Origin: a virus
Taxonomy: Duplodnaviria > Caudoviricetes
Reading direction: 5' to 3' (one strand)
IMG/VR virus record: IMGVR_UViG_3300011339_000704
Coordinates: 1 to 43,788 of that record
Length of the DNA: 43,788 nucleotides
This document shows, piece after piece, positions 839 through 42,510 of this stretch (its first letter is position 1; each line of letters starts with the position of its first letter). The position numbers and the translations under genes were made by a program. The notes beneath the pieces were generated by a model, which saw only the letters and a list, made by a program, of their open reading frames with translations, was not told the DNA's origin and ran no database searches.

Positions 839-924
839 AAAGACTGTTAAAAATAATACTAGCCATAGTTATACTGTGGTTGGTTATTGATGCCGCTAAC
901 TCTATAAACCAAGTGATACAATGA
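835..924 (+). CDS. small membrane protein (29 aa, not in ORF track)
   Basis: MKRLLKIILAIVILWLVIDAANSINQVIQ; ATGA overlaps at both ends; one hydrophobic helix. Confidence 0.6.
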   Translation: MKRLLKIILAIVILWLVIDAANSINQVIQ

Positions 925-3071
925 ATGACTACTTAGACTTTTTAGAAACTAAAGCCAAAACCATTATACAAAGTGGGTTTGAGCCAAAAGAATTAAACCC
1001 GTTACTTTTTCCTTTTCAAGACTTTATAGTGCGTAGGGCTTTAAAGGCTGGTAAATATGCAATTTTTGCTGATTGCGGTTTGGGCAAAAGTTTTATGCAA
1101 CTTGAATGGGCGCACCAAGTAAACCTGCACACTGGTAAAAAGGTATGCTTACTAGCCCCGTTAGCGGTTGTAAAGCAAACCCGTAAACAAGCTGCACAAT
1201 TTAATATACCGCTTGAATTTATCGACACCGATAACTACGAGCAACTATCAAACATTGACACGTCAGAATATGCTGGAGTAGTACTCGACGAAAGTTCGAT
1301 ACTTAAAAACTTTGAAGGTGCAACCAAGCAGCTAATACTTGATAAGTTTGCATTGACCCCTTACAAGTTAGCTTGCACCGCAACACCAAGCCCTAACGAC
1401 CCAATGGAAATAGGCAACCATAGCGAATTTTTAGACGTTATGGGGCGCAATGAAATGCTAGCAATGTACTTTGTGCATGATGGTGGCGAAACAGCTAAAT
1501 GGCGTTTAAAAGGTCATGCAGTTGAAACCTTTTACAAGTGGGTAGGAACGTGGGCGGTAATGCTATCCAAACCTTCCGATATTGGTTTTGAAATGGAAGG
1601 GTACGAATTACCAGCCCTTAACTTTATTGAGCACACCATAACCACCCCGAAACGAGATAACGGGCAACTGTTTAACGATGTGGCGATAAGTGCCACTAAC
1701 TTTAATGGTGAACTTCGTATAACATTATTACCCCGTATGGAGTTGGCAGCGGATCTGGTCAACAACTCAAAAGATAATTTTATTGTTTGGGTAAAGCAAA
1801 ATGCAGAAGGCGACCATATCCGTAAATTGATACCCGAAGCCGTGGAGGTTAGCGGTTCAGACAGCCCCGAATATAAAGCTGAAAAGCTATTAGGGTTTGG
1901 AGAAAATGAATTTAGGGTACTAATAACCAAAACCAAGATTGCCAGCTTTGGCATGAATTACCAAAATTGCCACAATCAAATATTTGCATCTTTAGATTTT
2001 AGTTTTGAAGCATTATACCAAGCTATCCGCAGGTCGTATAGGTTCGGGCAAAAGAACGAAGTAAATATTTTTATTATCACAACCGATACAATGACAAACG
2101 TATTGGAAGTGATAAAGCAAAAAGAAACGGCATTTAAAAAGATGCAATACGAGTTATCTAAAACCATTAACCAAAACCTAAACATGGAACGCACAATAGA
2201 ATTAATTGATGGAGAGCAAGAAGTAAAAACAGACCTATACCATATACACCGTGGGGACTGCGTACAAGGGTTATCTAAAGTTGAAAGTGAAAGCATTGGG
2301 TTTTCGGTATTTAGCCCACCATTTGCAGACCTTTATACGTATTCAAACCACATTGAAGATATGGGGAACAGTACCGATTATAACCAATTTTTGGTACAGT
2401 TTGGTTTTTTGGTAAAAGAACTGCACAGGGTAGTAATGAGCGGCAGGAATGTGGGCGTTCATTGTATGGATTTACCAATACAAAAAGGCAAAGAAGGATT
2501 TATCGGACTTCGTGACTTTAGTGGATTGATTATTAAGGCTTTTACCGATGCAGGGTTTATTTACCATAGCAGGGTAACAATTTGGAAAGACCCCGTAGTT
2601 GAAATGCAGCGTACTAAAGCATTGGGGTTGCTTCATAAGCAAGTAAAAAAGGACAGCACCATGAGCCGTGTTGGTATTCCCGATTATGTTTTGATATTCC
2701 GCAAGGATGGGGAACGTGAAAACCCTGTAAAATGTACCATTGATGTTGACACGTGGCAAAAATACGCTTCGCCTGTTTGGATGGATATTAAGTACGGCAA
2801 CACTTTACAGTACATGAGTGCACGTGACGAAAAAGACGAAAAGCATATTTGCCCTTTGCAGCTTGACACAATTGAAAGGTTAATACACCTCTACACTAAC
2901 CCTAATGACACCGTATTAACCCCATTTATGGGTATTGGCAGCGAAGTATATCAAGCCGTTAAAATGGGGCGTAAGGGCGTAGGGTTTGAACTAAAGCAAT
3001 CATACTTTGATGTAGCCGTAAAGAATTGCAGCGCAGCAGCACAATCACTTAACCAACTAACTTTAATGTAA
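921..3071 (+). CDS. SNF2-like helicase fused to N4/N6 DNA methyltransferase
   Basis: Walker A DCGLGKS, Walker B LDESS, TATP and QAIRRSYRFGQ. C-terminal amino-MTase has FSPPF before PFMGIGS (beta-class order) plus HICPLQ. Confidence 0.88.
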   Translation: MNDYLDFLETKAKTIIQSGFEPKELNPLLFPFQDFIVRRALKAGKYAIFADCGLGKSFMQLEWAHQVNLHTGKKVCLLAPLAVVKQTRKQAAQFNIPLEFIDTDNYEQLSNIDTSEYAGVVLDESSILKNFEGATKQLILDKFALTPYKLACTATPSPNDPMEIGNHSEFLDVMGRNEMLAMYFVHDGGETAKWRLKGHAVETFYKWVGTWAVMLSKPSDIGFEMEGYELPALNFIEHTITTPKRDNGQLFNDVAISATNFNGELRITLLPRMELAADLVNNSKDNFIVWVKQNAEGDHIRKLIPEAVEVSGSDSPEYKAEKLLGFGENEFRVLITKTKIASFGMNYQNCHNQIFASLDFSFEALYQAIRRSYRFGQKNEVNIFIITTDTMTNVLEVIKQKETAFKKMQYELSKTINQNLNMERTIELIDGEQEVKTDLYHIHRGDCVQGLSKVESESIGFSVFSPPFADLYTYSNHIEDMGNSTDYNQFLVQFGFLVKELHRVVMSGRNVGVHCMDLPIQKGKEGFIGLRDFSGLIIKAFTDAGFIYHSRVTIWKDPVVEMQRTKALGLLHKQVKKDSTMSRVGIPDYVLIFRKDGERENPVKCTIDVDTWQKYASPVWMDIKYGNTLQYMSARDEKDEKHICPLQLDTIERLIHLYTNPNDTVLTPFMGIGSEVYQAVKMGRKGVGFELKQSYFDVAVKNCSAAAQSLNQLTLM

Positions 3072-3310
3072 TGACACCCGAACAAAAAGCAGAATACAAC
3101 GCAAAGCGATGCAAAGACATCAGCGAGCACTTAGCACGGCAGCGAGCCAATTTAAAAGCCCTTAGAGATAAGAACGCTAACACTGGCAGGGTAATACCCA
3201 AAGACCACCCGTTAAGCCCGCAAATTAGCGATAAAACGGTATTGCCAAAGGTTAAGCCGTTATACGGTACACCCGATTACAAACCTCAAAGAAAAATCAA
3301 TCATGGCTAG
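3071..3310 (+). CDS. hypothetical protein
   Basis: TAATG coupling to the upstream gene; basic 79-aa ORF. Confidence 0.6.
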   Translation: MTPEQKAEYNAKRCKDISEHLARQRANLKALRDKNANTGRVIPKDHPLSPQISDKTVLPKVKPLYGTPDYKPQRKINHG

Positions 3311-3656
3311 GCAATTAGGACAACGAGAGATACCCGATGGCGAAACGTGCAAATGCAATAAATGTAAGTTGACTTTTGATAAAACGCCTGTTAACTTTCA
3401 TTTCCGCAAAGATGGAAGGATAACTCAATACATTTGCAAAGGATGTTATTACCTAGCTACTAAGTCAAGGCTTTACGAATGCAGGGCAAAAGCTAAAGAA
3501 CCCAAACCCGAAAGGAAACAGGATTTATTAGCGGTTGTAAAGGCTCGCACGTTTCCGAAAGGACACCCGATGAACCCGACTAAAGAACAACGGCAGGAAT
3601 TAATGGATAAAATAGACAGCAGGAGGGTGTATAAGAATGAAAGCCGCAACGATTAG
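3303..3656 (+). CDS. putative Zn-finger protein
   Basis: CNKC...FHF...CKGC pattern. Confidence 0.55.
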   Translation: MARQLGQREIPDGETCKCNKCKLTFDKTPVNFHFRKDGRITQYICKGCYYLATKSRLYECRAKAKEPKPERKQDLLAVVKARTFPKGHPMNPTKEQRQELMDKIDSRRVYKNESRND

Positions 3657-4216: not shown

Positions 4217-4459
4217 ATGAAACCAATACCTTTATTATTTGCATTATTGGCATTGATAAGTTTTTCCGTTGCTATTGGAATAGCAATAGAGCGTGAATTA
4301 AACCCATGCACTTGCCCAGGAAAACTACCAACACAAGTAACGGATATGTTCACTATCAAAGGGGACACTATCTATTTAAAACAAGATGCGGACTTTGTTA
4401 TTTCCACCCGTGGAATTGACATTGACACCGCTGGCATTATTCACCGCAAAAACAAGTAG
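4217..4459 (+). CDS. membrane/exported protein
   Basis: N-terminal hydrophobic helix. Confidence 0.55.
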   Translation: MKPIPLLFALLALISFSVAIGIAIERELNPCTCPGKLPTQVTDMFTIKGDTIYLKQDADFVISTRGIDIDTAGIIHRKNK

Positions 4460-4460
4460 C

Positions 4461-4583
4461 ATGAAGTATTTAATTGCGCTGACAATAGTTGGCTTGAGTG
4501 CCATTGGCTTGCTGTTTGGTAATAACATAGCAAAGCAACAAATTCACCGTCAAAAACTTGCACAAGTGAAAAGTAAAGTGTAA
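4461..4583 (+). CDS. small membrane protein
   Basis: ATG 4461 (MKYLIALTIVGLSAIGLLFG) lies directly after the upstream stop. Confidence 0.55.
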   Translation: MKYLIALTIVGLSAIGLLFGNNIAKQQIHRQKLAQVKSKV

Positions 4584-4588
4584 TTTAG
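4558..4588 (+). promoter_or_regulatory. putative promoter for the replication operon
   Basis: TTG 4558-4560, 20-nt spacer, TAATTTAG 4581-4588 (one mismatch to TAnnTTTG). Confidence 0.5.
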
Positions 4589-4594
4589 CGGTAC

Positions 4595-4720
4595 GATAAT
4601 AAACTAAGGTTGCTGAATGCGAAAAGCAGAACCGTAGTATCACAAACTAACTTATAGCCCTTTTGTTGCCGTAGCCTGTTCGCATCAGGTGAAAGCGCAA
4701 AAGGGCTTTTTAGTTTTATC
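4595..4720 (+). ncRNA. structured leader RNA with complementary hairpin loops and a terminator-like stem
   Basis: Hairpin 1 (4608-4633) has loop ATGCGAA. Hairpin 2 (AGCCCTTTTG/CAAAAGGGCT, 4656-4707) has apical loop TTCGCAT and is followed by a T-tract. Confidence 0.65.
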
Positions 4721-4738
4721 ACTTACTAATTATTAATT

Positions 4739-5065
4739 ATGAGTTACACACGAATGCCGTTCGGCAAATACAAGGGTATTGATATACCCGAACTTCCATC
4801 TAATTACCTACTATACGCATTAGAAACCTTTGATTTGCCAGAGGAGTTGACAATGGTATTAACCACAACATTATATGATAGGCTAATTTCAATGCCTAAT
4901 TGTGGTATGTATTTTGAAAATATTGTTTTAAAAGTTGGAATTGAGGAGCACAAAATAAAAGCAACGTATAAGGCTTTAACTTTAAAATACCACCCAGATA
5001 AAGGCGGTAGCCACGAAGCTATGCAAGCTATTAACGAATTTCGTGACCTATTAAACAATCAATAA
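4739..5065 (+). CDS. DUF3820-like / J-domain (DnaJ-like) fusion protein
   Basis: N-terminal MPFGKYKG motif; C-terminal YKALTLKYHPDKGG...MQAINE truncated J-domain with intact HPD. Confidence 0.75.
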   Translation: MSYTRMPFGKYKGIDIPELPSNYLLYALETFDLPEELTMVLTTTLYDRLISMPNCGMYFENIVLKVGIEEHKIKATYKALTLKYHPDKGGSHEAMQAINEFRDLLNNQ

Positions 5066-5787
5066 TGAACGGTTACGAACTTAGTAGGGTATGGTTTGCC
5101 TATACGTATAACCACCCCGACAAATTTAGCCCGATAGATACTGCCTTATATTTTTGGATAATAGAGGTATTTAATAGGGCTAGGTGGTCAGAAAAAATAT
5201 ACTTGCCATCTGGTCAAGCTATGCAGCATATAGGGTGTAAATCTTATAAGGCTTACATCAATAGTTTCAATAAACTTGAAGCGGAAGGATTTATAAAAGT
5301 AGTTGAACGTAGTAAAAACCAATATACGGCTAATATAATTGCTTTGGTTTCTAATGCTAAAGCACTGACCGAAGCAAGTACTAAAGCAACTACTAATGCA
5401 AGTACTGAAGCAAGTACCGAAGCACTGACCGAAGCAAGTACAGTATATAAGAACATAGAACATACAACAAAGAACATAGAACCTTTTGCATCTGAAGTTC
5501 AATTTCCCGACAACTTTACAGACGATCATAAACAACTTTGGTTTCAATATGAGCAAGTACGGGAAAGTATACCTAAGCCACCTTATTCACCAGCAGCAAG
5601 GCAATTAGCTATTACAGAATTTGTACGTAGTGCGAGTGCTGACCCGAAAAAATATACGCAAGGGTTAAAAGCAAGTATAACGGGTGCATGGGTAACGCCT
5701 AAATGGTTTGCACCTAAAATAGATAAGTACACCCCCGAACCACAACAAAAATCAAGTTACGACCGCAAATTTAAAGGCTATGAATAA
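5065..5787 (+). CDS. phage replication initiator (lambda O-like position)
   Basis: MNGYELSR.WF N-terminus with wHTH-like region, internal iteron repeats, directly upstream of DnaB. Confidence 0.75.
   Translation: MNGYELSRVWFAYTYNHPDKFSPIDTALYFWIIEVFNRARWSEKIYLPSGQAMQHIGCKSYKAYINSFNKLEAEGFIKVVERSKNQYTANIIALVSNAKALTEASTKATTNASTEASTEALTEASTVYKNIEHTTKNIEPFASEVQFPDNFTDDHKQLWFQYEQVRESIPKPPYSPAARQLAITEFVRSASADPKKYTQGLKASITGAWVTPKWFAPKIDKYTPEPQQKSSYDRKFKGYE
5360..5482 (+). repeat. iteron array / probable replication origin
   Basis: Seven tandem 12-bp units (consensus AAGCAAGTACYR, 5360-5443), then two AAGAACATAGAAC copies (5449-5461, 5470-5482). Confidence 0.75.
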
Positions 5788-8128
5788 CCTATACGAAAAA
5801 CAAGTACTTGGCGCAATTGTGCAAAGCGATGAAAGCCTACCCGACCTAATGGCAATGGTGCATGAAGATATGTTCAGCACAAGCGAATACAAAGACATTT
5901 TCAGAAGTGCAAAGTACCTATACGACAGTGGAAGACAAGTAAACATTATTAGCATACTGACACACAACAAAAAGCACGACATAATGAAGCTAACCGATGT
6001 TAGCGGTGCAATAGCTTCAACAGCTCACGTAATGGATTGTGCTAAAATACTTGTGCAGGAATTTATAAGGCATGAAATTGTTTCGCTTGCTGCAAAGATT
6101 AGCAACATGGCACTAGCACAAGACGACGTATTCGACATTTTAAACTACACAGGCACGACCGCTGGCAACTTAGAGCAAACCATAAGCCCGTCAACTATTG
6201 AGCACGTTAGCACCATTGTAAAAGAACAAGCAATCAAACGTGAAAAGGTAGTGGACATGGCAGGCATACCTACGGGTTTTAAAGAACTTGATAAACTTTT
6301 AGGGGGGTTTGTTGACGAATGGCTTATAATCGTAGCAGCGAGGCCAGGCATGGGCAAGTGTCTAGGCAAAGGCACTAAGGTTATAATGTTTGATGGCTCA
6401 GTTAAAAACGTAGAAGATGTTGTTGTTGGCGATAAGCTAATGGGCGATGACTCAACACCTAGAAACGTACTATCTTTAGCAAGGGGGCGTGAAGATATGT
6501 ATTGGATTAGGCAAAATAAAGGTATTGATTACCGTGTAAATAAAAGCCATATTTTGTCTTTGAAAAAAAGCAGGTCAGAGGGCGACCGTGGTAAAGGTGA
6601 AGTGCTTAATATTTCGGTATCTGATTATTTAGATAAGACTAATAAATTCAAATCAAATTACAAAGGTTATAAGGTAGCCGTAGAATTTGAAGCGAAAGCG
6701 GTTAATCTTGACCCGTATTATTTAGGCTTATGGCTTGGTGATGGAACGACAGTAAACCAAAATATAACTAACAGCGATAGTGAGATAATAGAATTTTTAA
6801 GCGGATATGCATCTAAACAAGGGGGCAGATTATCAACTAAGGTTCATGCAGGTAAAGCCCCCACGCATACCCTTTTAGATTGCAAAATGCAACAACAGTT
6901 AAGGGCATTAGGTGTTTTGGGTTTTAAACACATACCTAATGACTACTTAATAAATTCAACTGAAAACAGATTAAGGTTATTGGCAGGGCTACTTGATACA
7001 GATGGGTACTATGATAAAGCAGCTAACGTATTTGAGATAACACAAACCAAAGAACATTTAGCAAAGCAAATTAAATATTTATGCGATTCGCTTGGATTTA
7101 GGACTAACTATAAAAGCAAGATTGCAACTATTAAATCAACAGGCTTTAAAGGCGAGGTATTTAGATTGCAAATATCTGGTGACTTGCATTTAATACCTAC
7201 ATTAGTTGAGCGCAAAAAGGCTAGGATTGGCAGTAAGCAAAAAGACAATAAGGTTACGGGGATTAAAGTTGAATACGACAAAGTAGATGATTATTATGGG
7301 TTTGAAATTGATGGCAATAGGTTATTTCTTTTAGAAGATATGACGGTAACGCATAACACTAGCCTAATGCTATCCTTTGCCTACTACATTGCTAAGGCTG
7401 GCTATGCAGTGGATATTTATTCAATGGAAATGAGTAAAGGACAGTTGACCGATAATTTAATTAGTATGCATTGTGGCGTACCGTTGTGGAAGATACAGCG
7501 CAACAAATTGGAGCACTACGAATTAGAGCAAGTAAAGCAAGCGGAAGCGTTTATATCAAGCCTACCAATACACATTGACGACCAGCCCCGTATAAAGGGC
7601 AGACAGATACGAAGCAGGATAGTGATGGGTAAAAAGAAACGAGATACGAAAATAGTAATGGTTGATTATATTCAGATAATGGGTGAGGAAGGCAAAGGCA
7701 ACCGAGAGCAGGAAATTAGCAATATAAGCGGAAACCTAAAAGCCGCTGCAAAGGAAGCTAAGATACCTATTATCGCATTGGCACAACTAAGTAGGGAGGT
7801 AGAGAAACGAGCCGACAGGCGACCGCAATTAAGCGATTTACGGGAATCGGGCGCAATAGAGCAAGATGCGGATATTATTATGTTTCCTTTTCGGGCTTGG
7901 TACTACCATACAACTGGTGTTGATGGTTTTGAGTATAACGATAAGAACGAAAGCACCGAAAATTTAGGCGAGTTGTTAATTGCCAAAAACAGGCATGGTA
8001 TGGTAGGTGATATTGAGGTAGGTTGGGAAGGTAGTAAAAAGCTATTTTACGACAAAGAACAGGATTTTGAGCCAAAACCTTTATCTAAAATGCAGCGACC
8101 AAGTGAAGATGATTTTGACGTATTTTAA
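5780..8128 (+). CDS. dnaB: replicative DNA helicase DnaB, intein-containing
   Basis: GIPTGF, AARPGMGK|T, SMEM, VDYIQ, LAQLSR, SDLRESGAIEQDAD and AKNRHG motifs. Confidence 0.95.
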   Translation: MNNLYEKQVLGAIVQSDESLPDLMAMVHEDMFSTSEYKDIFRSAKYLYDSGRQVNIISILTHNKKHDIMKLTDVSGAIASTAHVMDCAKILVQEFIRHEIVSLAAKISNMALAQDDVFDILNYTGTTAGNLEQTISPSTIEHVSTIVKEQAIKREKVVDMAGIPTGFKELDKLLGGFVDEWLIIVAARPGMGKCLGKGTKVIMFDGSVKNVEDVVVGDKLMGDDSTPRNVLSLARGREDMYWIRQNKGIDYRVNKSHILSLKKSRSEGDRGKGEVLNISVSDYLDKTNKFKSNYKGYKVAVEFEAKAVNLDPYYLGLWLGDGTTVNQNITNSDSEIIEFLSGYASKQGGRLSTKVHAGKAPTHTLLDCKMQQQLRALGVLGFKHIPNDYLINSTENRLRLLAGLLDTDGYYDKAANVFEITQTKEHLAKQIKYLCDSLGFRTNYKSKIATIKSTGFKGEVFRLQISGDLHLIPTLVERKKARIGSKQKDNKVTGIKVEYDKVDDYYGFEIDGNRLFLLEDMTVTHNTSLMLSFAYYIAKAGYAVDIYSMEMSKGQLTDNLISMHCGVPLWKIQRNKLEHYELEQVKQAEAFISSLPIHIDDQPRIKGRQIRSRIVMGKKKRDTKIVMVDYIQIMGEEGKGNREQEISNISGNLKAAAKEAKIPIIALAQLSREVEKRADRRPQLSDLRESGAIEQDADIIMFPFRAWYYHTTGVDGFEYNDKNESTENLGELLIAKNRHGMVGDIEVGWEGSKKLFYDKEQDFEPKPLSKMQRPSEDDFDVF
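6359..7357 (+). mobile_element. intein with LAGLIDADG homing endonuclease in the DnaB P-loop
   Basis: Begins CLGKGT after GMGK and ends VTHN before +1 Thr. Blocks LGLWLGDG and LLAGLLDTDG present. 333 aa; spliced DnaB would be 449 aa. Confidence 0.93.
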
Positions 8129-12364: not shown

Positions 12365-12596
12365 ACTAAACAGAAAAACAAAAGTTTGGTTGCTAATTAT
12401 AGCCTTTTGGATAGCTTTTATAATAGTGGTCACGATTGTTATTTTATTTCCAATTATAGGTATAGTAATAGCCTTGGTAGGGATTAGTATTTTAATGACC
12501 TTAGCAATAAAATTATTTGCAGAAGATTTCGTACATAAGCAATTTATAAAAGAATACAGAGCAAATAAAAAACCTAAACCACTAACCAATGAGTGA
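12357..12596 (+). CDS. membrane protein (2 TM)
   Basis: Long hydrophobic hairpin with basic tail. Confidence 0.6.
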   Translation: MIELNRKTKVWLLIIAFWIAFIIVVTIVILFPIIGIVIALVGISILMTLAIKLFAEDFVHKQFIKEYRANKKPKPLTNE

Positions 12597-16863: not shown

Positions 16864-17550
16864 GTGATACCCAAAATACTACTCGGAGCACCGATAAACC
16901 AACGCAAGGCATACGTACTTGACGAATGGCTAAAGTTCATTAGAACGCTTACCTATCCTAACTTGCATATTATTCTAGTGGATAACAGCAACGACCCGAA
17001 ATGGCACAAGACAATAAAAGGTTTTGATGTTCGCAGGGTAGAGCCTAAAGGCAGACCCGAAGCGTACATAGCAGCATCGCAGGAAGTGATAAGAGAGTAC
17101 GCACTAACTAACGGGTTTGATTATCTATTTAGTTTGGAGTGCGATAACTTTTGCCCACAAGACACCATTGAACGGTTGCTAGTGTACCGTACCGATAACA
17201 TTAACGTGCCTTACTTTTTGAAGGAGGGTTTAAATACCACCGTTGGCGTTCAATTGATGGGTATTAGCCAAGCCACTTACAGGCGGTTTGATGTACCACC
17301 ACCCGAAAGCTGCATAGGGTTCTTTGATGGCAAACTAAAGACAGGCGTACCGTCAATCGGGTGTAGTTTGTTTAGCCGTAACCTACTCGAAAAGGTGCAA
17401 TTTAGGCACGACCCAAACCAACTAGGTAAGTTTAGCGATAGTTGGTTTCACCTTGACAGCATGAGAGTAGGAATAACCCCCGTAATTGTAACCGATATAA
17501 TTTCAACACATAAACGTAACCCACAATGGAGTTCAATAAAGAACAACTAG
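16864..17550 (+). CDS. glycosyltransferase (GT-A fold)
   Basis: IILVDNS, YLFSLECD (DxD-like), GCSLFSR and FSDSWF motifs. Confidence 0.8.
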   Translation: MIPKILLGAPINQRKAYVLDEWLKFIRTLTYPNLHIILVDNSNDPKWHKTIKGFDVRRVEPKGRPEAYIAASQEVIREYALTNGFDYLFSLECDNFCPQDTIERLLVYRTDNINVPYFLKEGLNTTVGVQLMGISQATYRRFDVPPPESCIGFFDGKLKTGVPSIGCSLFSRNLLEKVQFRHDPNQLGKFSDSWFHLDSMRVGITPVIVTDIISTHKRNPQWSSIKNN

Positions 17551-17993
17551 AACAAGCATGGCAGGAACGCTTTGAACGTGAGCACGAATACCTAACACTT
17601 ATCGAAGGGTATCGCAACGCAAAGCAAAAGGCACTAGACAAAGCCGAACCCGATAGCGTGGAGTACTGGCAGCTAAGTATAGAGATATTCGACCTAGATA
17701 CCAACATCAAAACAAAAGAACATTATATCGAAAGCATGAAACAAGACAAGGCGCAACAACAAGCCTTTCAAGATGCCAAGATGCAATTTATCGAAACGCA
17801 TTCGACGGACATACTTAAAAAGGCAAGGGTATGTATAGAGAGGGGAACGGATAGAGCAACCGTACTCGAAGCCTTGACAAAGGAAATGCCGCAACGAGAA
17901 ACGCCCGAATGGTATGCAAGGATATGGGAGATTAACGAGCACGTGAACGCTGCGAAAGTACCAACAACCGAACAACTAAAAGCGGTTAAATGA
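17526..17993 (+). CDS. alpha-helical hypothetical protein
   Basis: Coupled ORF rich in E/Q/K. Confidence 0.65.
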   Translation: MEFNKEQLEQAWQERFEREHEYLTLIEGYRNAKQKALDKAEPDSVEYWQLSIEIFDLDTNIKTKEHYIESMKQDKAQQQAFQDAKMQFIETHSTDILKKARVCIERGTDRATVLEALTKEMPQRETPEWYARIWEINEHVNAAKVPTTEQLKAVK

Positions 17994-18649
17994 AAGACTT
18001 TGAATATTCAGTAATGCAAACGCATAACCATCTTTATTTTTTTGGGGAATATGTACCAAAGACAAAAGACATACAGAGTTATGGCTATTACAAAGCCGTT
18101 ATGTATGACGGTAATAGCTTTAATTTAAATATGGGGGTAGGGGAATCCAATATGTATGATTTTAAAAAGATTTTCCAAGACATTGAGATTGCCAATTTTT
18201 TAGAAATGCCTTCGCTAGATTTCCAACTTCAAGGCAAAACCATAAAAAATTGGTATGGTGATATTATTGCTAACTCAAAGCAAGCTATAACTACCGATTG
18301 TGAATTTCTTTGTAAAAGTGGAAGCGATAGCCCTTTTATAATACCAACAGGCACAAAGATAGATTTAACACTTAACTCATTTACTTACAAAGGTGAGCGC
18401 AGAGATTGGCGTGGCGTTATAGGGTTACCAAGCCTACCACAAAGTGTATTAGTTAGGAATGAAAATGAATGGGTTAACATAAAGCAAGTTTTAACCGTGT
18501 TAGAACATGACTATGTTGAAATAGATTTATTTCCAAAATCCATTGCTATTGATGAGAATAGCAAAACAATTACAATTAACGAGCCTAATGCAATAGACAT
18601 TAACGGCAAAGAATTTTATAACGATATGTTTTTTAAGATTTGGAGATGA
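17990..18649 (+). CDS. hypothetical protein
   Basis: ATGA-coupled on both sides; visibly more AT-rich than neighbours. Confidence 0.65.
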   Translation: MKDFEYSVMQTHNHLYFFGEYVPKTKDIQSYGYYKAVMYDGNSFNLNMGVGESNMYDFKKIFQDIEIANFLEMPSLDFQLQGKTIKNWYGDIIANSKQAITTDCEFLCKSGSDSPFIIPTGTKIDLTLNSFTYKGERRDWRGVIGLPSLPQSVLVRNENEWVNIKQVLTVLEHDYVEIDLFPKSIAIDENSKTITINEPNAIDINGKEFYNDMFFKIWR

Positions 18650-19323
18650 GAATAAGCCTAATACACCCAAGCCGTAGCCGCCCCGAAATGGCACACGCTA
18701 ACTACCTTAACTGGTTAGCCAAAAGCGAAGCGCACAACAACGGGAATTCAAAGATAATCATTGAGCATATCCTGTCATTGGACTTAGATGAACCGAGATA
18801 CGATGACTATGTACGGTTGTTTGGGGCGCACCACATAGTCCGTGAGAATACAAGCGATGGGTACGTAGTAGGTGCGACCAATGCAGCGGCTAAGTACGCC
18901 ACAGGTGACATTCTGATTTACCTTAGTGATGACTTTGATTGCCCTAAACATTGGGATAAGTTGATAGCGGATAAAATGGATATTAACCTTGAGCAAATAC
19001 TAAAGGTTGATGACTGTTTGCAGCCAATGGGAGTAGCCGTATTAACCATACCCATAATGACTAAAGCGTTTTATAATCGGTTTGGGTATTTCTTCCACCC
19101 CGAATACAAATCAATGTTTTGCGATGAGGACTTGTACCATGTAGCCCGTATAATAAACGGGTTAGTATTTGCACCCGATTTAAAGTTCCCACACTTACAC
19201 CCTAGTAACCCGACAAAGGAACTACAAGGTACAAGCGATAACACTTACAACCGTTCTAATGGTATGTGGACACAAGGGCAAACACTACACACCAAACGAA
19301 GGTTAAATAATTACGGGCTATGA
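18646..19323 (+). CDS. glycosyltransferase family 2-like
   Basis: ISLIHPSRSR, ATNAAAKYATGDILIYLSDD, YKSMFCDED and HLHP motifs. Confidence 0.8.
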   Translation: MRISLIHPSRSRPEMAHANYLNWLAKSEAHNNGNSKIIIEHILSLDLDEPRYDDYVRLFGAHHIVRENTSDGYVVGATNAAAKYATGDILIYLSDDFDCPKHWDKLIADKMDINLEQILKVDDCLQPMGVAVLTIPIMTKAFYNRFGYFFHPEYKSMFCDEDLYHVARIINGLVFAPDLKFPHLHPSNPTKELQGTSDNTYNRSNGMWTQGQTLHTKRRLNNYGL

Positions 19324-19877
19324 AGCTATCAATTTTAATATGCTCAATCGAAAGCCGTAGCCACTTGTTAGCTAGGTTGTTGGCTACACTGGATATGCAA
19401 AGCGATATTAATGCGGAAGTGTTAGTGTCGATTGATAACCGCCAAAAGAAAATAAGCGATAAGCGCAACGAGTTATTGGATAAGGCTAAAGGCGACTATA
19501 TTGTTTTTATAGATGATGACGACCTAGTGCCGAGTTACTACGTTAGCGAACTGTTAAAGGCTATTGAAACCAAACCCGATTGCGTAGGCTTTGACGGCTA
19601 CATGACAACCAACGGCAAAGACCGCCACAACTTCAAGATTAGTAATACGTTTGACAGTTGGTACGAAAAAGACAAGGTTTATTATCGGACTATTAACCAC
19701 CTTTGCCCTGTTAAACGGGAACTCGCTTTAAGGGTAAAATTTCCGAGAGGTATAAATAGCGGTGAAGATGCCGACTATTCAAACAGGCTAAGACCATTAC
19801 TTAAAACAGAGGTTTACATTAACAAAGATATGTACCATTACGATTTTCAAACAGCGATAACTACACAAGGCAAATGA
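19320..19877 (+). CDS. glycosyltransferase family 2
   Basis: LSILICS, KRNELLDKAKGDYIVFIDDDD and GEDADY motifs. Confidence 0.88.
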   Translation: MKLSILICSIESRSHLLARLLATLDMQSDINAEVLVSIDNRQKKISDKRNELLDKAKGDYIVFIDDDDLVPSYYVSELLKAIETKPDCVGFDGYMTTNGKDRHNFKISNTFDSWYEKDKVYYRTINHLCPVKRELALRVKFPRGINSGEDADYSNRLRPLLKTEVYINKDMYHYDFQTAITTQGK

Positions 19878-20473
19878 GATACTCACAAAACAATGAGCAG
19901 CAAGTAATACTAGACTACTTTGGCGAGCACTACATCGGTACGTTTTTAGATTTAGGCTGCAATGACGGGGTAACATTTTCAAACACCCGTGCAATCGCTT
20001 TAAACGGCTGGAGTGGTATGTTAGTAGATGCCAGCGAAACCGCTGCAAACCTAGCGCAAACGCTTTATAAAGACAATGACAGGGTAGAAGTAGTTAACGT
20101 AGCGATAGCACCTTACAAGGGCTTTATTACGTTTTACGAAAGCGGTACGCATTTAGGCGGTCAAGATGTTAGCTTAGTTAGTACGATAATCGAAAGTGAA
20201 AAACAACGATGGGTTAACGATAAATTTACAGAGGTGCAAGTACCTTGCGATACGGTTAAGAGCATAATGAACGGGCGCACGTTTGATTTTATCAATATTG
20301 ACATTGAGGGCATGGACTTTGAGGTGTTGAGTCAAATAGACTTAACTGATGTTAAATGCGTATGCGTGGAGTACAACGGGATAGAGCCAAAAAAGTATAT
20401 TCAGTATTGCGCTGGGTACGGATTAACCGAAATACACCGCAACGGAGAAAACCTAATTTTTGCAGCGATATGA
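19874..20473 (+). CDS. FkbM-family methyltransferase
   Basis: YSQNNE, FLDLGCNDG...SNT, GWSGMLVD, FINIDIEGMD and CVEY motifs. Confidence 0.88.
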   Translation: MRYSQNNEQQVILDYFGEHYIGTFLDLGCNDGVTFSNTRAIALNGWSGMLVDASETAANLAQTLYKDNDRVEVVNVAIAPYKGFITFYESGTHLGGQDVSLVSTIIESEKQRWVNDKFTEVQVPCDTVKSIMNGRTFDFINIDIEGMDFEVLSQIDLTDVKCVCVEYNGIEPKKYIQYCAGYGLTEIHRNGENLIFAAI

Positions 20474-21138
20474 GAAACATAATAGTAACCTTTGCAAAGG
20501 GCAACCCCCGATACATAGCAGCCGCAAAAGCGCAAAAGCAAAGCCTAATCGCTAAAGGCTATACAGGCGAATACATTTGTTACACCAGCGAAAAACAACT
20601 AGGTTGCCCAAACCACAAAGATAACCCATATGCGTTCAAAGCCTATGCGATTAAAAAGGCACTAGACGAAGGGTACGATAATATCCTTTGGCTGGATAGC
20701 GTGGTGCAATGCGTAGCCCCTTTAGATAAGCTATTTGAGCACATACAAGACACGGGGTATTCATTCTTTGACAACTACACCTATGCTATTGGTTCGTACT
20801 GTAACGATAGCTGCAAATCAATTTACGGCATAACGGAAACGGAACTACAAGCCCCTATGATTATGGCTTGCGTAATGGGACTAAATAGAGAAAAGGCTAA
20901 TGTATTTATTGAGCAGTATTACGAAGGTGCTTTAAACGGTTCTTTTGTTGGCAGTTGGGACGACCATAGGCACGACCAAACCGTTGCAAGCCTATTGATA
21001 AATAGGAATAATATACCTATCTTGCAAGGGCATGAAACCTTTTTTATGTACTACTTTATGGTAGGGCTTGAGTTCGAGTATAATAATCAATTAATCAAAC
21101 TAGACAGGGGTTCAGATGTATGCCTGTTATCAATCTAA
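20470..21138 (+). CDS. nucleotide-diphospho-sugar transferase-like protein
   Basis: PYAFKAYAI, ILWLDS and HRHDQT motifs of GT-A-like transferases; ATG 20470 is ATGA-coupled. Confidence 0.7.
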   Translation: MRNIIVTFAKGNPRYIAAAKAQKQSLIAKGYTGEYICYTSEKQLGCPNHKDNPYAFKAYAIKKALDEGYDNILWLDSVVQCVAPLDKLFEHIQDTGYSFFDNYTYAIGSYCNDSCKSIYGITETELQAPMIMACVMGLNREKANVFIEQYYEGALNGSFVGSWDDHRHDQTVASLLINRNNIPILQGHETFFMYYFMVGLEFEYNNQLIKLDRGSDVCLLSI

Positions 21139-21141
21139 CTT

Positions 21142-21759
21142 ATGGGAGTAACAACACACTCAAATAACCTAGTGCAAAAGCACAAAGGCAACGCTAAAAC
21201 AATGCTCGAATTAGGTAGCCAAAACACCTACTTTGATTGTGAGCCTACTGGAGTAGCTAAAGACTACTACACTAAACAAGGCTTTGACCATTATAGCCTT
21301 GATGCAAACGGGGAATACGATAGCGAGATAGTAGATTTGTCAACCGTATTGAATTTAGAGCCGTGCGACATTGTTACCGATTTCGGCACAAGCGAACACG
21401 TTAGCAATTATTATAACTGTTGGCTTAATAAACACAACGGGTGTAACATTGGCGGTTTGATTATAAGCGAAAACCCAAAGGTGAACAACTGGCACGGGCA
21501 CGGTTTTCACTACTTGACCAAAGAATTCTATACCGAACTTTGCAAGGTTGCAGGATATGAACTAATTGAAGTTGGTGAACACGCTGCAATGGGTAACGTA
21601 ACAGATGGGTGGAACGTGTACGGGGTATTGCGAAAAGTTAGCGATGCGTTTCCAAGTGAAAGTGACTTTTGCGCTTTGCCATTTGAAAGTACCAATAGAG
21701 ATAAACAGAAAACTGAAACAACCGCACCTAAAAAACGTGGCAGACCCTCAAAGAAATGA
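21142..21759 (+). CDS. class I SAM-dependent methyltransferase
   Basis: MLELGSQ, SLDANG, VDLS, DIVTDFGTSEHV and GGLII motifs; C-terminal PKKRGRPSKK. Confidence 0.78.
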   Translation: MGVTTHSNNLVQKHKGNAKTMLELGSQNTYFDCEPTGVAKDYYTKQGFDHYSLDANGEYDSEIVDLSTVLNLEPCDIVTDFGTSEHVSNYYNCWLNKHNGCNIGGLIISENPKVNNWHGHGFHYLTKEFYTELCKVAGYELIEVGEHAAMGNVTDGWNVYGVLRKVSDAFPSESDFCALPFESTNRDKQKTETTAPKKRGRPSKK

Positions 21760-22490
21760 AACTAGCAGCAGTTTACAACGTATGGGACGGATTAGAGCAC
21801 TTGGATAAGTCCATAAGCCTAATTTATCCGTTTGTTGACCACGTTATATTAGTGTGGCAAGACCGTAGTAATTTTGGCGAACTGAACCCCGATACTTCGA
21901 TATGCATTCAAGCATTATCGGCTAAGTACTCAAAGGTAACGCATAGCTACTACACCCCCGACATACAGAAAGGCGGTACGCATAACGAGATAGCCAAGCG
22001 GTTTAAAGGTAGCATGATTGCAAAGGATTTAGACTGTACGCATTTCCTGCATATTGATACGGATGAGTATTACGTACCTAGTGATTTTGAAGCTGGCAAA
22101 GCGTTTGTTTTGGAGCACAACCTAGACACTAGCTATTGTAAACTCGTTACCTACTTCAAACAGCCTAATTACAGATTAGAGCCTTTAGAAAGTTACTTTG
22201 TGCCGTTCATTTGCAAAATTACCTCATGCAATATTGGAGGTTTTGGAATATACGTAGACCCAACTAGGGGTACAAGCCCACAAGGTAGATGCAAGGAAGT
22301 ACCGATACTGATGCACCACATGAGTTATATTAGGAATGACATCGCAATGAAGATACGAAACAGCAGCGCACGGGGTAACATAAAGGACATGGCTAAACGG
22401 CTAAAGGAGATAGACGATTGGCAGCTAGGGCAACCACACCCGTTCATGCCACAGTATAGCATAGTGGAAACGAATAATTTATTTGAGTAA
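21756..22490 (+). CDS. glycosyltransferase family 2-like
   Basis: YNVWDG.EHL, HFLHIDTDEYY (DxD) and MHHMSYIR motifs. Confidence 0.75.
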   Translation: MKLAAVYNVWDGLEHLDKSISLIYPFVDHVILVWQDRSNFGELNPDTSICIQALSAKYSKVTHSYYTPDIQKGGTHNEIAKRFKGSMIAKDLDCTHFLHIDTDEYYVPSDFEAGKAFVLEHNLDTSYCKLVTYFKQPNYRLEPLESYFVPFICKITSCNIGGFGIYVDPTRGTSPQGRCKEVPILMHHMSYIRNDIAMKIRNSSARGNIKDMAKRLKEIDDWQLGQPHPFMPQYSIVETNNLFE

Positions 22491-27274: not shown

Positions 27275-30200
27275 AAAAACATTAGTATATCGAATTAACT
27301 TTGACGGACTTGAAGCCCAAGCCGCAGCTATTGGTAAGGTTGACGGGCAGTTAACTGCTTTGAACCAAACCGTAAAAGAACAACGAGAGGAGTTAAGCAA
27401 ACAACGGGCAGCCAATCAAGATAACACCCAAGCCTATGCAGACTTAACAGCTAAGTTAGGCGAAAATATAGTACAACAACGCAACCTATCCAAAGCCAAA
27501 GGCGACCTAATAAGGGAAACGCAAAACGAAGCGAAAGTACTAAAAGAAAACGAGGGCAGTATTGTTTCCTTACGGGCGCAGCTATCGAACCTTACCAAAG
27601 AATACAATAATTTAACAAGGGCTGAACGTGAAAGCGCAAAAGGCAAAGATGTACAAAACCAAGCCAAAGCGATTAGTGATGAACTAAAGAAACTCGAAAG
27701 CGCAGTAGGTAACACAAGCAGGAACGTAGGTAACTATAAGGAAGCATTAGGGGAACTCGAAACAAGCCTAAAACAATTATTACAAGCGCAAGCGGCAGCC
27801 CGTAAAAGCGGACAAGAAAATAACGCAGTTTTTGTAGCCAACGAAGCCGCTATACAAGCCCTTGCAGAAGAATATCAGATATTAGCCAAATCCGAAAAGG
27901 AAGTTGACAATCAATTAAAAGCGTTAACCCAAACCGAAAACGAAGCAGGTGCATCAGCGGATAGTCTTAAAAGCAAACTAAGGGCATTAAAGGAAGCCGC
28001 AGCGGTAGCTGGCGAGGGTACAGAAGACTTTAAAAGATTGACAGCGGAAGCCGCTAAATTACAAGACCAAATAGAGGATACCAACGAAGCTATAAAGCAG
28101 GAAAAGGGTACGGAGTTTGAGAAATTCAGAGAGCAACTAGGGGGCGTTGGGCAATCACTCGGCAACCTTGATTTTAAGCAAGCTAACGAAAGGATAGCGC
28201 AATTAGGCACGACCTTAAAGGGTTTAACTTTTAGTAGCTTAAAAGACGGTTTAAAGGGTGCGGCTAGTTCGTTTAGTGCATTCGGTAAAGTACTACTGAC
28301 TAACCCTATATTTTTAATAGCGGCTATTGCGGCAGCCGTTGGCATAGCGTTGTTTGCGCTTAAAGACAAAGTAAAGATAATCGGGCAGGCGTTTGAATTG
28401 GCTACACTAGGTCCGAGGTTGTTAATTCAAGCGTTCAAAGATTTAGGCGATGCGATTGGCGTTACAAGTTTCGCAGCCGACAAAGCAGCAGAGGAAACAG
28501 CTAAGGCATTAAAAAAGCAAGCTGAGGACGGTAAAGAATATACCGATACACGGATTAAGCAATTAGACCGTGAGATTGCATTTTTAAAAGCCGCTGGCAA
28601 TGACGCATCAAAATTGGAGTTGGAAAGGCTACAAGAAATAAAACGCTTTGCGAGGGAGCAAGAAAACATACAAGAACAACAACTAAAGAACCTAGAGAAA
28701 AAACTAAATGATGGCAGGGTAATAAGTGAGGAGGAGCAAAAGCTACTAAAAGAGGAGAAAAATAGGTTAACTGAACTGTCCGAGGCATATAAAGACTCTA
28801 TAAGTGCTATAACCAATTTTTTTGCAGCTAAATCCAAAGCTGCAAGAGATGATGCTGATGAAGATAAAAAGGTAAAAGAGAAACAAGCCGAAGATGATAA
28901 AAAAGCAGCAGACGAAGCCATAGCCAACGCTAAAAGGAAACGTGATGAAATTGAAGCCGCTAACAAACAACTGATAGAACAAACCAAAATATCAAATGCT
29001 AATTTAATTGCCGATGAGAAACTAAAAGCCGAAGCCCTTGCTAAAATTGCTTTTGATGCGGAAGTAAAAAATATCAACAATTCAAAAGCAAGTAAGACCG
29101 CAAAAGATAACGCACTTTTAGCAGCCGAAAAAACGTATCAAGCTCAATTAATCAAGATTAACGAAGATGCAAACGCAAAGATATTAGCCGATGATGCGCA
29201 AGCCGATGCCGATGCTAAAGCCCTTAGATTAGCCGCTTTAAACGAAGAGTTAACCGAAATAGATATTAGGTTGCTTAAAGTTGAACAAGGTTCAGAAGAG
29301 GAATTAACTATACTACAAGAACGACTAGATAAGGAACTAGAGATTAAATTGCAATCGGTTAAGGCAGGGTCAGCTGCTGAAAAATTACTAATTGAACAAG
29401 CCATTGCCGATGGGACTAAACTAGAAGAAGATGCAGCAGTTAAACGAAACGAACAAAAAGCAAAGGTATTAACAGAGAGAGAAGAAGAACGAGTAAAGAA
29501 TGCGGAAAATGCCGCCATTGCCTTAGAACTTGCTAGTAATACTATCAACACGTTAGCGCAATTAAAGGATATGGAAACGGAGCAGAATTTAGCCCGTATC
29601 AATAAAGACCGAGATGCGCAAATAGCAGCTATTCAAAACAGCACACTAAGCGAGGAGGCTAAGGCTAAAAAGATAGCCGAGATAAATGCACAGGCACAAG
29701 CTAAAGCAGATGCAGAACGCAAAAAGCAAGCGGAAAGCCAAAAGCGTTTAGCATTAATTCAGATTGCATTAGATACGGGCGTAGCGATTGCATCAACGGT
29801 TGTACAAGCTACTAAAGCAGGGTGGCCAGCAATGATACCAGCGATTGCAACTGGCATAGCAGCAGTATTAGCTGGTATAGTAAGCGCAACGGCAGCGGTT
29901 AATTCAGCAAAATTTGCGTTAGGTGGTGAGATACCAATGGATGGTGGGTTTATCACAGGCAACTCACACTCACAAGGCGGTGTTAAGTTTTCCGCAGGCG
30001 GTAGGCTAATGGAAGCCGAAGGGGGCGAGATAATCGTAAACAAAGGCATACAGAAACGCCCCGACTTTGTACGGGCTATAAGCCAAATGAACTACATGAC
30101 GGGTGGTAAAAAGTTTGAAACAGGCGGTATTGTAGCCCCCGTGTTTAGCGCAGCAGGAGCGAGCCTTGCAGCTAGTGAGCAAAGTTTTGGTTCGGGCTTT

Positions 30201-40813: not shown

Positions 40814-41067
40814 GTGATAACCATCTTACTAATGTTGGCAGCGATAAAGTTAATCCAAACCACTATAAAGGCTATTCTAAGGAAACTATCGAAATGATGG
40901 TAGCTATTTACGGTGCGGAAAAGGTAGCCACATATTGCGAGTGCAACGCTTTTAAATACCGCATGAGAATGGGTAAGAAACAAGGCGAAAGCATTACAGA
41001 CGACCTAGCAAAAGAACGCTGGTATCTTGACAAAGCAAAGGAATTGCGTGATAGCTTACATTTGTAG
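40810..41067 (+). CDS. DUF3310 (SaV-like) protein
   Basis: DKVNPNHY...ETI...NAFKYRMR.GKK...DDLAK..WYL. Confidence 0.85.
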   Translation: MSDNHLTNVGSDKVNPNHYKGYSKETIEMMVAIYGAEKVATYCECNAFKYRMRMGKKQGESITDDLAKERWYLDKAKELRDSLHL

Positions 41068-41094
41068 GCTATTTTCATTTTAAACCACTAACCA

Positions 41095-42510
41095 ATGGAA
41101 TTTGCATTTGAAAAGCAAAACGTAACCGATAAGATACGCATTGAACTAGCTAAATACGAAGCCCCGAAAGCCGCAGAATTTAGGATTATAGCCGACTTAG
41201 TAGGTTCGACCGATAAGTACGTTAAGATGGTGTATTATCGGGAGCGTGATAAACAGACCGTACAAGTAGAAGTTGAAGGGAGTGAAACGTGGGAAGTAAA
41301 AAACGGTAAGTACATTTGGCAAACCAAACACGGGGTAATTAACTTAGCGGTTGAGTTTATTGACCAGCTATTTTTTGAATACTCGCAACACGGGCGCAAC
41401 TATGACAGCACCCGAATAAGAAACAAACACAATTTAAAGCCGTGGGAATGGAACTCTATAAAGTCCCGTTTGCAGCTTTACAAGAACGCTAACATCTTCA
41501 GTCCGTACACATGGGACAACACCCCACTAAGTGAACGTGAGGGCATGGTAGCGGCTAAAATAACCCACAAGCTGCAGGATAGCGGACACGTTGTAACCGA
41601 CCAATACAACAAGGCACTACAAAAGGCGTATAAAGCGGAACTTGAAAAGGGCAACAAAGCAAAGTTTTTCGGGGACGAACTAAAAGCAGCACTACTTGAC
41701 CATTTGCCGACAATAGAAAAGTACCGGATTAGCCGAATACCCGAACCTTATAAGATAGATTGCATAGCAGCTACCATAACCGACCTACACATAGGGGCGC
41801 AAGTAGAAGGGTTAAGAGCAACACAAGACTACAACAACGAGGTATGTAAAGCCAAACTAAAAGAGATAGCCGAGATAATCAACCAGCAAGGGGCAAAGGA
41901 AGTACACATAAACATATTAGGCGACTTGATAGAGAGTTTCACAGGACTTAACCACCCGAATAGCTGGAAGTCAATGCAATCTAAAATGTACGGGGTAACG
42001 GTAGTTATTGAAGCGTACAAAATGCTACTTGAATTTCTTTGCTCAATACATAATTTAAGCCAAGTAAACAGCGTAGGCGGCAACCACGACAGACCCACTG
42101 CAAGCAACAAAGAGGAAACCAATGGAGAGATAGCCGAACTAATCAACTTCATGCTATCAGAGTCGCTAAAAACCATCAAATTTACCTACAATCATAGTTT
42201 GAACGCACAAGTGATTGACGGTATTAACTACATTTTAGTACATGGCGACAAAGGACACAGTAAAGATAGCAAGATAGGCACGCTAGTATTCAACCACGGC
42301 AAACAGGATATGTTTAACCTAGTGTTGGCAGGGCATTTACACAGCCGTATAACGGGGTGCGACAGTAGTAAATACCGAAAGATAACAGTTCCTAGCGTGT
42401 TTACAGGCAATGCGTATTCAGACGACTTAGGTTTTAGCGGTACGGCTGGCTTTATTATCATTTCCAACCGTAACGGGTTGCCTTTAATAACGGATTATAC
42501 ACTATCTTAG
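41095..42510 (+). CDS. calcineurin-like metallophosphoesterase with N-terminal extension
   Basis: DLHIG, GDLIE, GNHD, HGD and GHLH motifs. Confidence 0.85.
   Translation: MEFAFEKQNVTDKIRIELAKYEAPKAAEFRIIADLVGSTDKYVKMVYYRERDKQTVQVEVEGSETWEVKNGKYIWQTKHGVINLAVEFIDQLFFEYSQHGRNYDSTRIRNKHNLKPWEWNSIKSRLQLYKNANIFSPYTWDNTPLSEREGMVAAKITHKLQDSGHVVTDQYNKALQKAYKAELEKGNKAKFFGDELKAALLDHLPTIEKYRISRIPEPYKIDCIAATITDLHIGAQVEGLRATQDYNNEVCKAKLKEIAEIINQQGAKEVHINILGDLIESFTGLNHPNSWKSMQSKMYGVTVVIEAYKMLLEFLCSIHNLSQVNSVGGNHDRPTASNKEETNGEIAELINFMLSESLKTIKFTYNHSLNAQVIDGINYILVHGDKGHSKDSKIGTLVFNHGKQDMFNLVLAGHLHSRITGCDSSKYRKITVPSVFTGNAYSDDLGFSGTAGFIIISNRNGLPLITDYTLS

Follow-up and report, generated by a model that had tools for sequence, protein, structure and literature searches.

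RNA-RNA pairing that decides whether downstream genes are expressed has been described in several systems. In the guanidine-IV riboswitch, according to the accessible part of PMC11611296, a kissing loop makes it harder for the whole terminator stem to form during a narrow window of transcription, and elongation of this stem in turn strains the kiss. In phage P4, as described in the accessible part of PMC4825925, the CI RNA is processed from the same transcript that it controls and terminates transcription of the replication genes. Among plasmids, the closest cases are the attenuators of pT181 and pIP501 and the repZ system of ColIb-P9, in which the Inc RNA blocks a cis pseudoknot required by repZ (accessible part of PMC8383071). 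On the other hand, little is known about how Bacteroidota phages in which no repressor or antiterminator is obvious time the expression of their replication genes. Here we describe a conserved kissing-loop RNA design, not found in Rfam, from a leader that likely attenuates the replication operon of a phage.

Setting and anatomy of the leader

The window, meaning the whole stretch of DNA analysed (43,788 nucleotides), is the 43.8 kb record of an uncultured phage with a completeness estimate of 64%. The leader is placed between a 40-aa ORF (4461-4583) and a module of J-domain protein, initiator and DnaB genes, so that the position ahead of the initiator and dnaB given in an earlier note on this DNA is upheld. 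The features are the following:

4558..4588, + strand: predicted promoter of the Bacteroidota -33/-7 type, TTG (4558) to TAATTTAG (4581-4588), by consensus match
4603..4638, + strand: hairpin A, with the conserved closing scaffold GCTGA-[7 nt]-AAGC; predicted fold of about -9 kcal/mol
4617..4623, + strand: loop code a, ATGCGAA, within the loop of hairpin A; covaries with a'
4639..4655, + strand: A/U-rich linker, single-stranded in the predicted fold
4656..4707, + strand: hairpin B, terminator-like; predicted fold of -25.6 kcal/mol
4679..4685, + strand: loop code a', TTCGCAT, the whole loop of hairpin B, by sequence and fold
4707..4717, + strand: U-tract U5-AG-U4, the predicted termination site
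4739..5065, + strand: 108-aa protein with a PF12843 N-terminus and a DnaJ domain, by domain match; first gene after the leader
5065..5787, + strand: likely replication initiator of 240 aa, by homology, with a presumed role at the origin
5780..8128, + strand: DnaB-like helicase with a Hint/LAGLIDADG intein, by domain matches

The N-terminus of the initiator has 34% identity to a protein annotated as a DnaD-like replication initiation protein. Its gene contains 12-bp tandem repeats (5357-5453) that are likely iterons, by analogy with lambda O. The likely origin would lie inside the initiator gene, so read-through from the leader would cross it too. The relatives of the initiator are found mostly in Bacteroidota genomes, plus the Polaribacter phages Danklef 1-5, which supports a Bacteroidota host and agrees with the assignment of the earlier note. 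No match was found for the initiator in plasmids or for the J-domain protein among cultured phages, and the window has no tRNA. The helicase gene (5780-8128) is split by its intein, which carries both Hint and LAGLIDADG homing-endonuclease domains. Elsewhere in the window there are a 716-aa fusion of a helicase-like domain with an N6/N4 DNA methylase (921-3071) and a series of genes (16864-22490) that lie between the terminase region and the head-tail region and have, by eye, a glycosyltransferase/methyltransferase look. The hydrophobic 40-aa ORF (4461-4583) might suggest a type I toxin-antitoxin pair; this reading was set aside, since ORF and RNA share one strand and a consensus scan found no antisense promoter near the leader.

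The promoter is identical in the related locus L086. Its 3' end is at 4588, it overlaps the end of the 40-aa ORF and it has one mismatch to the TAnnTTTG consensus. The mismatch falls at the -7 position, called nearly invariant in the accessible part of PMC6847099, and this counts against the mechanism proposed below. With the numbering of the same source, we infer a transcription start at about 4593. Hairpin A is the weaker of the two hairpins. The complementarity that the earlier note had seen between ATGCGAA and TTCGCAT is found exactly where it was placed; its 7-nt loop in hairpin A is, however, a loop of 10-11 nt that contains AUGCGAA. Hairpin B is predicted to have a base stem of 10 bp (AGCCCTTTTG/CAAAAGGGCT), an internal loop CGUA/GAAA (4670-4673 / 4691-4694) and an upper stem of 5 bp (4674-4678 / 4686-4690), with the 3' end of a' 21 nt ahead of the end of the hairpin. 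This G+C-containing stem (4656-4707), directly followed by the U-tract, has the layout of an intrinsic terminator, bearing out the terminator look that had been proposed. A simple terminator scan left hairpin B unflagged because its rule wants a loop of 3-8 nt and the interrupted stem misfits. The fold of the whole leader (-39.4 kcal/mol, z = -4.05) was equalled in stability by none of 200 shuffles.

Loop-loop complementarity across the family

Homology searches with the initiator or the J-domain protein gave 151 loci, and as leader of each one we took the nearest upstream promoter-plus-terminator, picked blind to complementarity. A leader was detected in 47 loci. Among the 104 without one are 36 of the 39 loci from bacterial genomes, contig ends and detector misses, for instance L003 and L007, in which the leader is visible by eye. 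Even allowing for such misses and contig ends, these 104 loci show that the initiator can occur without the leader, which counts against the mechanism proposed below. A Watson-Crick match of at least 7 nt between the unpaired segment of the terminator and its own upstream 70 nt was found in 21 of 31 non-redundant leaders, versus 7 of 930 cross-pairs and 96 of 6,200 shuffles. Further controls gave 0/31 for same-sense and for reversed matches and 1/31 for complement-only and for downstream matches. Promoter-linked terminators matched in 20 of 37 cases and the others in 14 of 138 (both strands, all loci of at most 50% G+C), several of these 14 belonging to the family but having a variant promoter. 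The 37 unique leaders carry 30 distinct codes, and no sequence is common to the whole family. The complementarity of the two loops across the family is far beyond chance, and the loops covary in homologous leaders, the check that the earlier note had set for its kissing loops. A chance match beside an ordinary terminator might still be argued from the window locus alone, where a complement of the 7-mer appears in 151 of 20,000 shuffles (0.75%) of the upstream 68 nt, but it is refuted by the family-wide covariation and we give it practically no credit.

The position of the code is also constrained. It ends 16-21 nt ahead of the U-tract in 19 of 20 leaders versus 12 of 104 control terminators, whose distances were measured from the last loop. 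In three long hairpins with the apical loop 29-31 nt away the code is found instead at 18-20 nt, in a 3' bulge. Part of this fixed spacing comes from shared ancestry and from hairpin length. The leader is always 7-48 nt ahead of a same-strand start codon. No promoter motif follows the terminator before the start codon in any of 27 leaders, so expression of the replication genes likely requires read-through, in line with the terminator-like hairpin of the earlier note.

Close relatives show the codes being exchanged on a constant background. The scaffold of the window, GCTGA-[7]-AAGCAG ... GTAG ... GAAAG, was found again with the codes AATGCAA/TTGCATT in L302/L318 and L328 and ACCGCAA/TTGCGGT in L319, compared with ATGCGAA/TTCGCAT in the window. 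Between L319 and L328 there are differences at 4 of 14 code positions and at only 2 of 107 elsewhere. In public DNA contigs from close relatives G4619A is accompanied by C4683T on the other side of the same kiss pair, with equal contig depth in at least two runs among the 40 of 91 rows listed. A 137-nt contig has CTCGGAA upstream and TTCCGAG in the terminator loop, the latter read from matching depths. At least three codes are present within the window's own lineage. A second sub-family gave an alignment of 12 members in which 84 of 84 cells pair (32-43% in slid controls), with five of the seven kiss pairs varying on both sides and two invariant. These 12 members were pre-selected for having a match, so the independent test is the blind one (21/31).

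L086 has the same code as the window and 2 differences in 111 non-code positions. In this locus (2045-3372) the leader is kept and the first gene is replaced by a different one of 174 aa; its second gene is also different and has only a C-terminal tail in common with the window initiator. The first gene after the leader is exchangeable among relatives, and public contigs diverge exactly at 4579 and 4719. A promoter, a structured RNA and a strong terminator moving as a self-contained cassette between flanks, as in L086 and these contigs, would also suit a gene for a stable small RNA that brings its own terminator. In such a gene the kiss would do no more than compact or protect the finished RNA, and polymerase would get to the replication genes through constant leak or a separate antitermination system. 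The constant place of the leader before a start codon with no promoter downstream, the fixed distance from code to U-tract and the lack of conserved free sequence left for another target all speak against such a gene, and we find it quite improbable.

The scaffold pattern scan gave 21 loci, 8 true leaders and 13 chance matches. A second pattern gave 8 loci, among which this leader is found twice, in L086 and in the window's own sequence, and a third gave 9 loci with no kissing leader on inspection, its gap excluding the spacing of the window itself. One more pattern matched only the window's own sequence and another gave 5 matches. The leader DNA had only short chance matches to cultured phages. 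The design itself is present in a cultured one, the Polaribacter phage Danklef_1 (MT732458.1, L336), where GGTGGAA/TTCCACC follow TATATTTG and the leader (about 28530-28680), the only one of its kind among four terminators detected there, precedes a hypothetical gene and the initiator. Direct testing is possible because this phage is in culture. Nine scanned records contained one leader in six cases, two in one and none detected in two, and in these last two a leader was seen by other inspection. The complete genome G003 has two leaders with different codes. The second one (L343, minus strand near 12534, code CCACTAC) is located before a NUMOD4/HNH endonuclease-like gene. At the G+C-rich locus L022, upstream of 3001, the J-domain gene is preceded by a different structured leader, presumably similar to C4/Ash-type sequences.

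Other parts of the leader turned out to be less constant. GUA opposite GAA, which the earlier note had likened to loop E, is present in the window and, by sequence, in 9 of 30 leaders, and it is gone in a close variant, so we consider it optional; the likeness to the loop E/bulged-G consensus is at the sequence level. The proposed switch between AAACTAA and TTAGTTT exists as sequence but was rejected because TTAGTTT (4710-4716) is not conserved, being missing in L086 and altered by G4713T in contigs of at least three runs. The CTG/CAG pairing also exists as sequence, but a strand-invading extension of the kiss by at least 3 bp on this side is found in only 4 of 27 leaders and was rejected too; from the sequences the kiss pairing appears to halt at the loops.

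The search for a known family in Rfam that the earlier note had suggested gave 0 matches at the gathering threshold for the window and 10 related loci, with eight weak matches (E 1.2-8.2), each far under its threshold. The C4-type models did not match in the window or the 10 related loci, nor did the guanidine-IV model at E up to 10 in 4400-4900. We found no description of the kissing-loop leader in the literature searched, subscription papers aside, a comparison that took in the motif table and the accessible part of PMC2864571. A catalogue of 8,495 unnamed RNAs from IMG/VR has been published by Fremin et al. 2023 (PMC10690425, accessible part). Six short leader motifs are absent from its readable supplements other than file 4, and members of this family may be listed, unnamed, in its alignment archives.

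Proposed action of the leader

On balance, we favour the view that the leader is a transcription attenuator in which the kiss between a and a' hinders closure of the terminator, so that part of the polymerases reads on. Transcription would start near 4593, and the upper stem of hairpin B would present a' with the polymerase still about 20 nt short of the U-tract. Code a would then pair with a' during transcription, just before the lower stem can close. The kiss would close a ring, and the 3' arm of the lower stem, still bound to the polymerase, would have to wind through it; with the stem hindered in this way a fraction of polymerases would continue into the initiator and helicase genes. Without the kiss, termination would be the default and an RNA of about 120 nt would be released. 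In energy the a-a' helix (about -7 kcal/mol) is no match for the full terminator (-25.6), and its action would therefore be kinetic or topological. Against this view, nested folds of growing transcripts gave no alternative antiterminator helix once hairpin B begins to zip (ViennaRNA omits the kiss). The direction, with the kiss favouring read-through, is drawn from analogy and geometry; covariation by itself fits equally a kiss that merely compacts the released RNA. The gate might be tipped by polymerase speed or pausing, by competing leader RNA or by a factor.

This last input leads to an alternative, namely that the kissed fold is the landing shape for a protein or small ligand and that this factor, not the RNA alone, sets read-through. 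Candidates would be a phage or host antiterminator, or a binder of kissing complexes such as Rop. A factor would account for the recurrent non-canonical internal loop under the code (GUA/GAA), for the invariant flanks within sub-families (GCTGA-7-AAGC) and for the two invariant kiss pairs of the 12-member alignment, and the guanidine-IV kiss does require stabilisation by its ligand (accessible part of PMC11611296). However, such a factor would find no sequence common to the whole family, a NusG/UpxY-type gene was found in none of 15 records, and the free swapping of the first downstream gene leaves no constant autoregulatory partner there. We consider this alternative unlikely.

Competing leader RNA leads to an explanation that adds an input to the attenuator and replaces nothing in it. 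The cis kiss would read through, while leader RNA, once released or processed, would build up, pair in trans with a or a' of newly made transcripts, keep the cis kiss from forming and force termination. This would turn the leader into a timer or genome counter made of RNA only, its code being specific to the phage, following the logic of P4 CI or ColIb Inc, and we regard it as tentative. It is favoured by the diversity of the codes and their swapping in near-identical leaders (L319 versus L328; at least three in the window lineage), by the two different codes carried by the complete genome G003 and by the precedents of P4 CI and Inc RNA described above. Among nearest neighbours, code positions differ slightly more than the terminator stem (26.7% versus 21.2%, nominal P 0.048, with non-independent pairs). 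On the contrary, in the 12 closest pairs the code changed at the same rate as the rest (10/184 versus 65/1,199), so diversifying selection is unsupported. The released RNA might also satisfy its own loops in cis. A second target is rare as well, since a further copy of code a of at least 6 nt near the start codon is found in only 3 of 27 leaders, and that of the window has none (best match 4 nt). In L101 (1340-1470) the second copy, CTCCTGA, lies just before the start codon, in a two-target layout like that of C4, and L276 and L283 have similar 6-nt copies near the start codon.

Lysogenic immunity would probably not be the usual setting of such a switch. A tyrosine integrase (PF00589) was found in 0 of 14 IMG/VR records, most of them incomplete (0/5 of those at least 90% complete), and an HTH_3 repressor in 0 of 15 records. 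Lysogenic immunity is therefore unlikely as a rule, which weakens the immunity label in the earlier note. Danklef_1 is called potentially temperate in the accessible part of PMC8776804. Its integrase match (41006-41455) has one in-frame stop inside, and by its sequence the gene may be broken.

Three further readings of the leader were considered. An antisense RNA has little to point to, the antisense promoter motif being unenriched in a consensus scan (6 of 27 leaders versus a background of 17.6%). Translational sequestration was rejected: the start codon is outside hairpin B, and Bacteroidota do not use Shine-Dalgarno sequences (accessible part of PMC6847099). Several a' loops resemble anticodon loops (YU-NNN-R), and a T-box-like reading of them was dropped because the partner of a' is in cis and covaries.

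Comparison with known systems

These results do not place the leader in guanidine-IV, in P4 CI/C4 or in the pT181/pIP501 antisense attenuators, and each of them shares part of its logic. The guanidine-IV riboswitch (mepA motif) is like the leader in that a 5' hairpin and the terminator hairpin kiss through their loops (accessible part of PMC11611296). Unlike it, the leader is without an Rfam match, its pairing letters vary freely (the 30 codes) and there is no conserved ligand pocket. The genes that follow are also different, guanidine exporters there and phage replication or HNH genes here (J-domain protein, initiator and DnaB in the window).

With P4 CI (seqA/seqB/seqC) and P1/P7 C4 the leader has in common that the RNA is encoded within the leader it would control, with short loop-based pairing and premature termination before replication genes (accessible part of PMC4825925). 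The analogy drawn in the earlier note holds to the extent that this is probably a leader of the premature-termination type; it does not extend to an Rfam match or to the second target. The leader has one partner, not two flanking targets, and unlike CI and C4 it carries its code in the loop of the intrinsic terminator itself, in carriers mostly without a tyrosine integrase match.

The attenuators of pT181 and pIP501 also let RNA-RNA pairing decide termination before a rep gene (accessible part of PMC8383071). They need a countertranscript, whereas the two partners of the leader are on one strand and an antisense promoter is unenriched. In the repZ pseudoknot of ColIb-P9, rep expression requires a pairing in cis, with which the Inc RNA competes (accessible part of PMC8383071). 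That system, unlike the leader, acts on translation at the ribosome-binding site and with a separate antisense RNA, while the second loop of the leader caps a terminator and leaves the start codon uncovered.

By analogy, the leader likely works like a kissing antiterminator of the guanidine-IV type and possibly like P4 CI. A broader proposal, which we put forward as speculative, is that these are widespread attenuators of Bacteroidota phages, free of protein and ligand, in which a swappable code of 7-9 nt antiterminates in cis and the terminated leader titrates in trans. If true, replication-gene expression would run on a clock or genome counter made of RNA only, co-infecting phages would interfere with each other in a code-specific way, and the codes would be a natural set of orthogonal transcription switches for engineering Bacteroidota. 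Titration in trans, if it holds, would give phages a novel means of counting or timing themselves. The design recurs in dozens of unrelated sequence versions without an Rfam model, and the logic of kissing loop versus terminator, known from a ligand riboswitch, is found here with interchangeable codes and no evident ligand.
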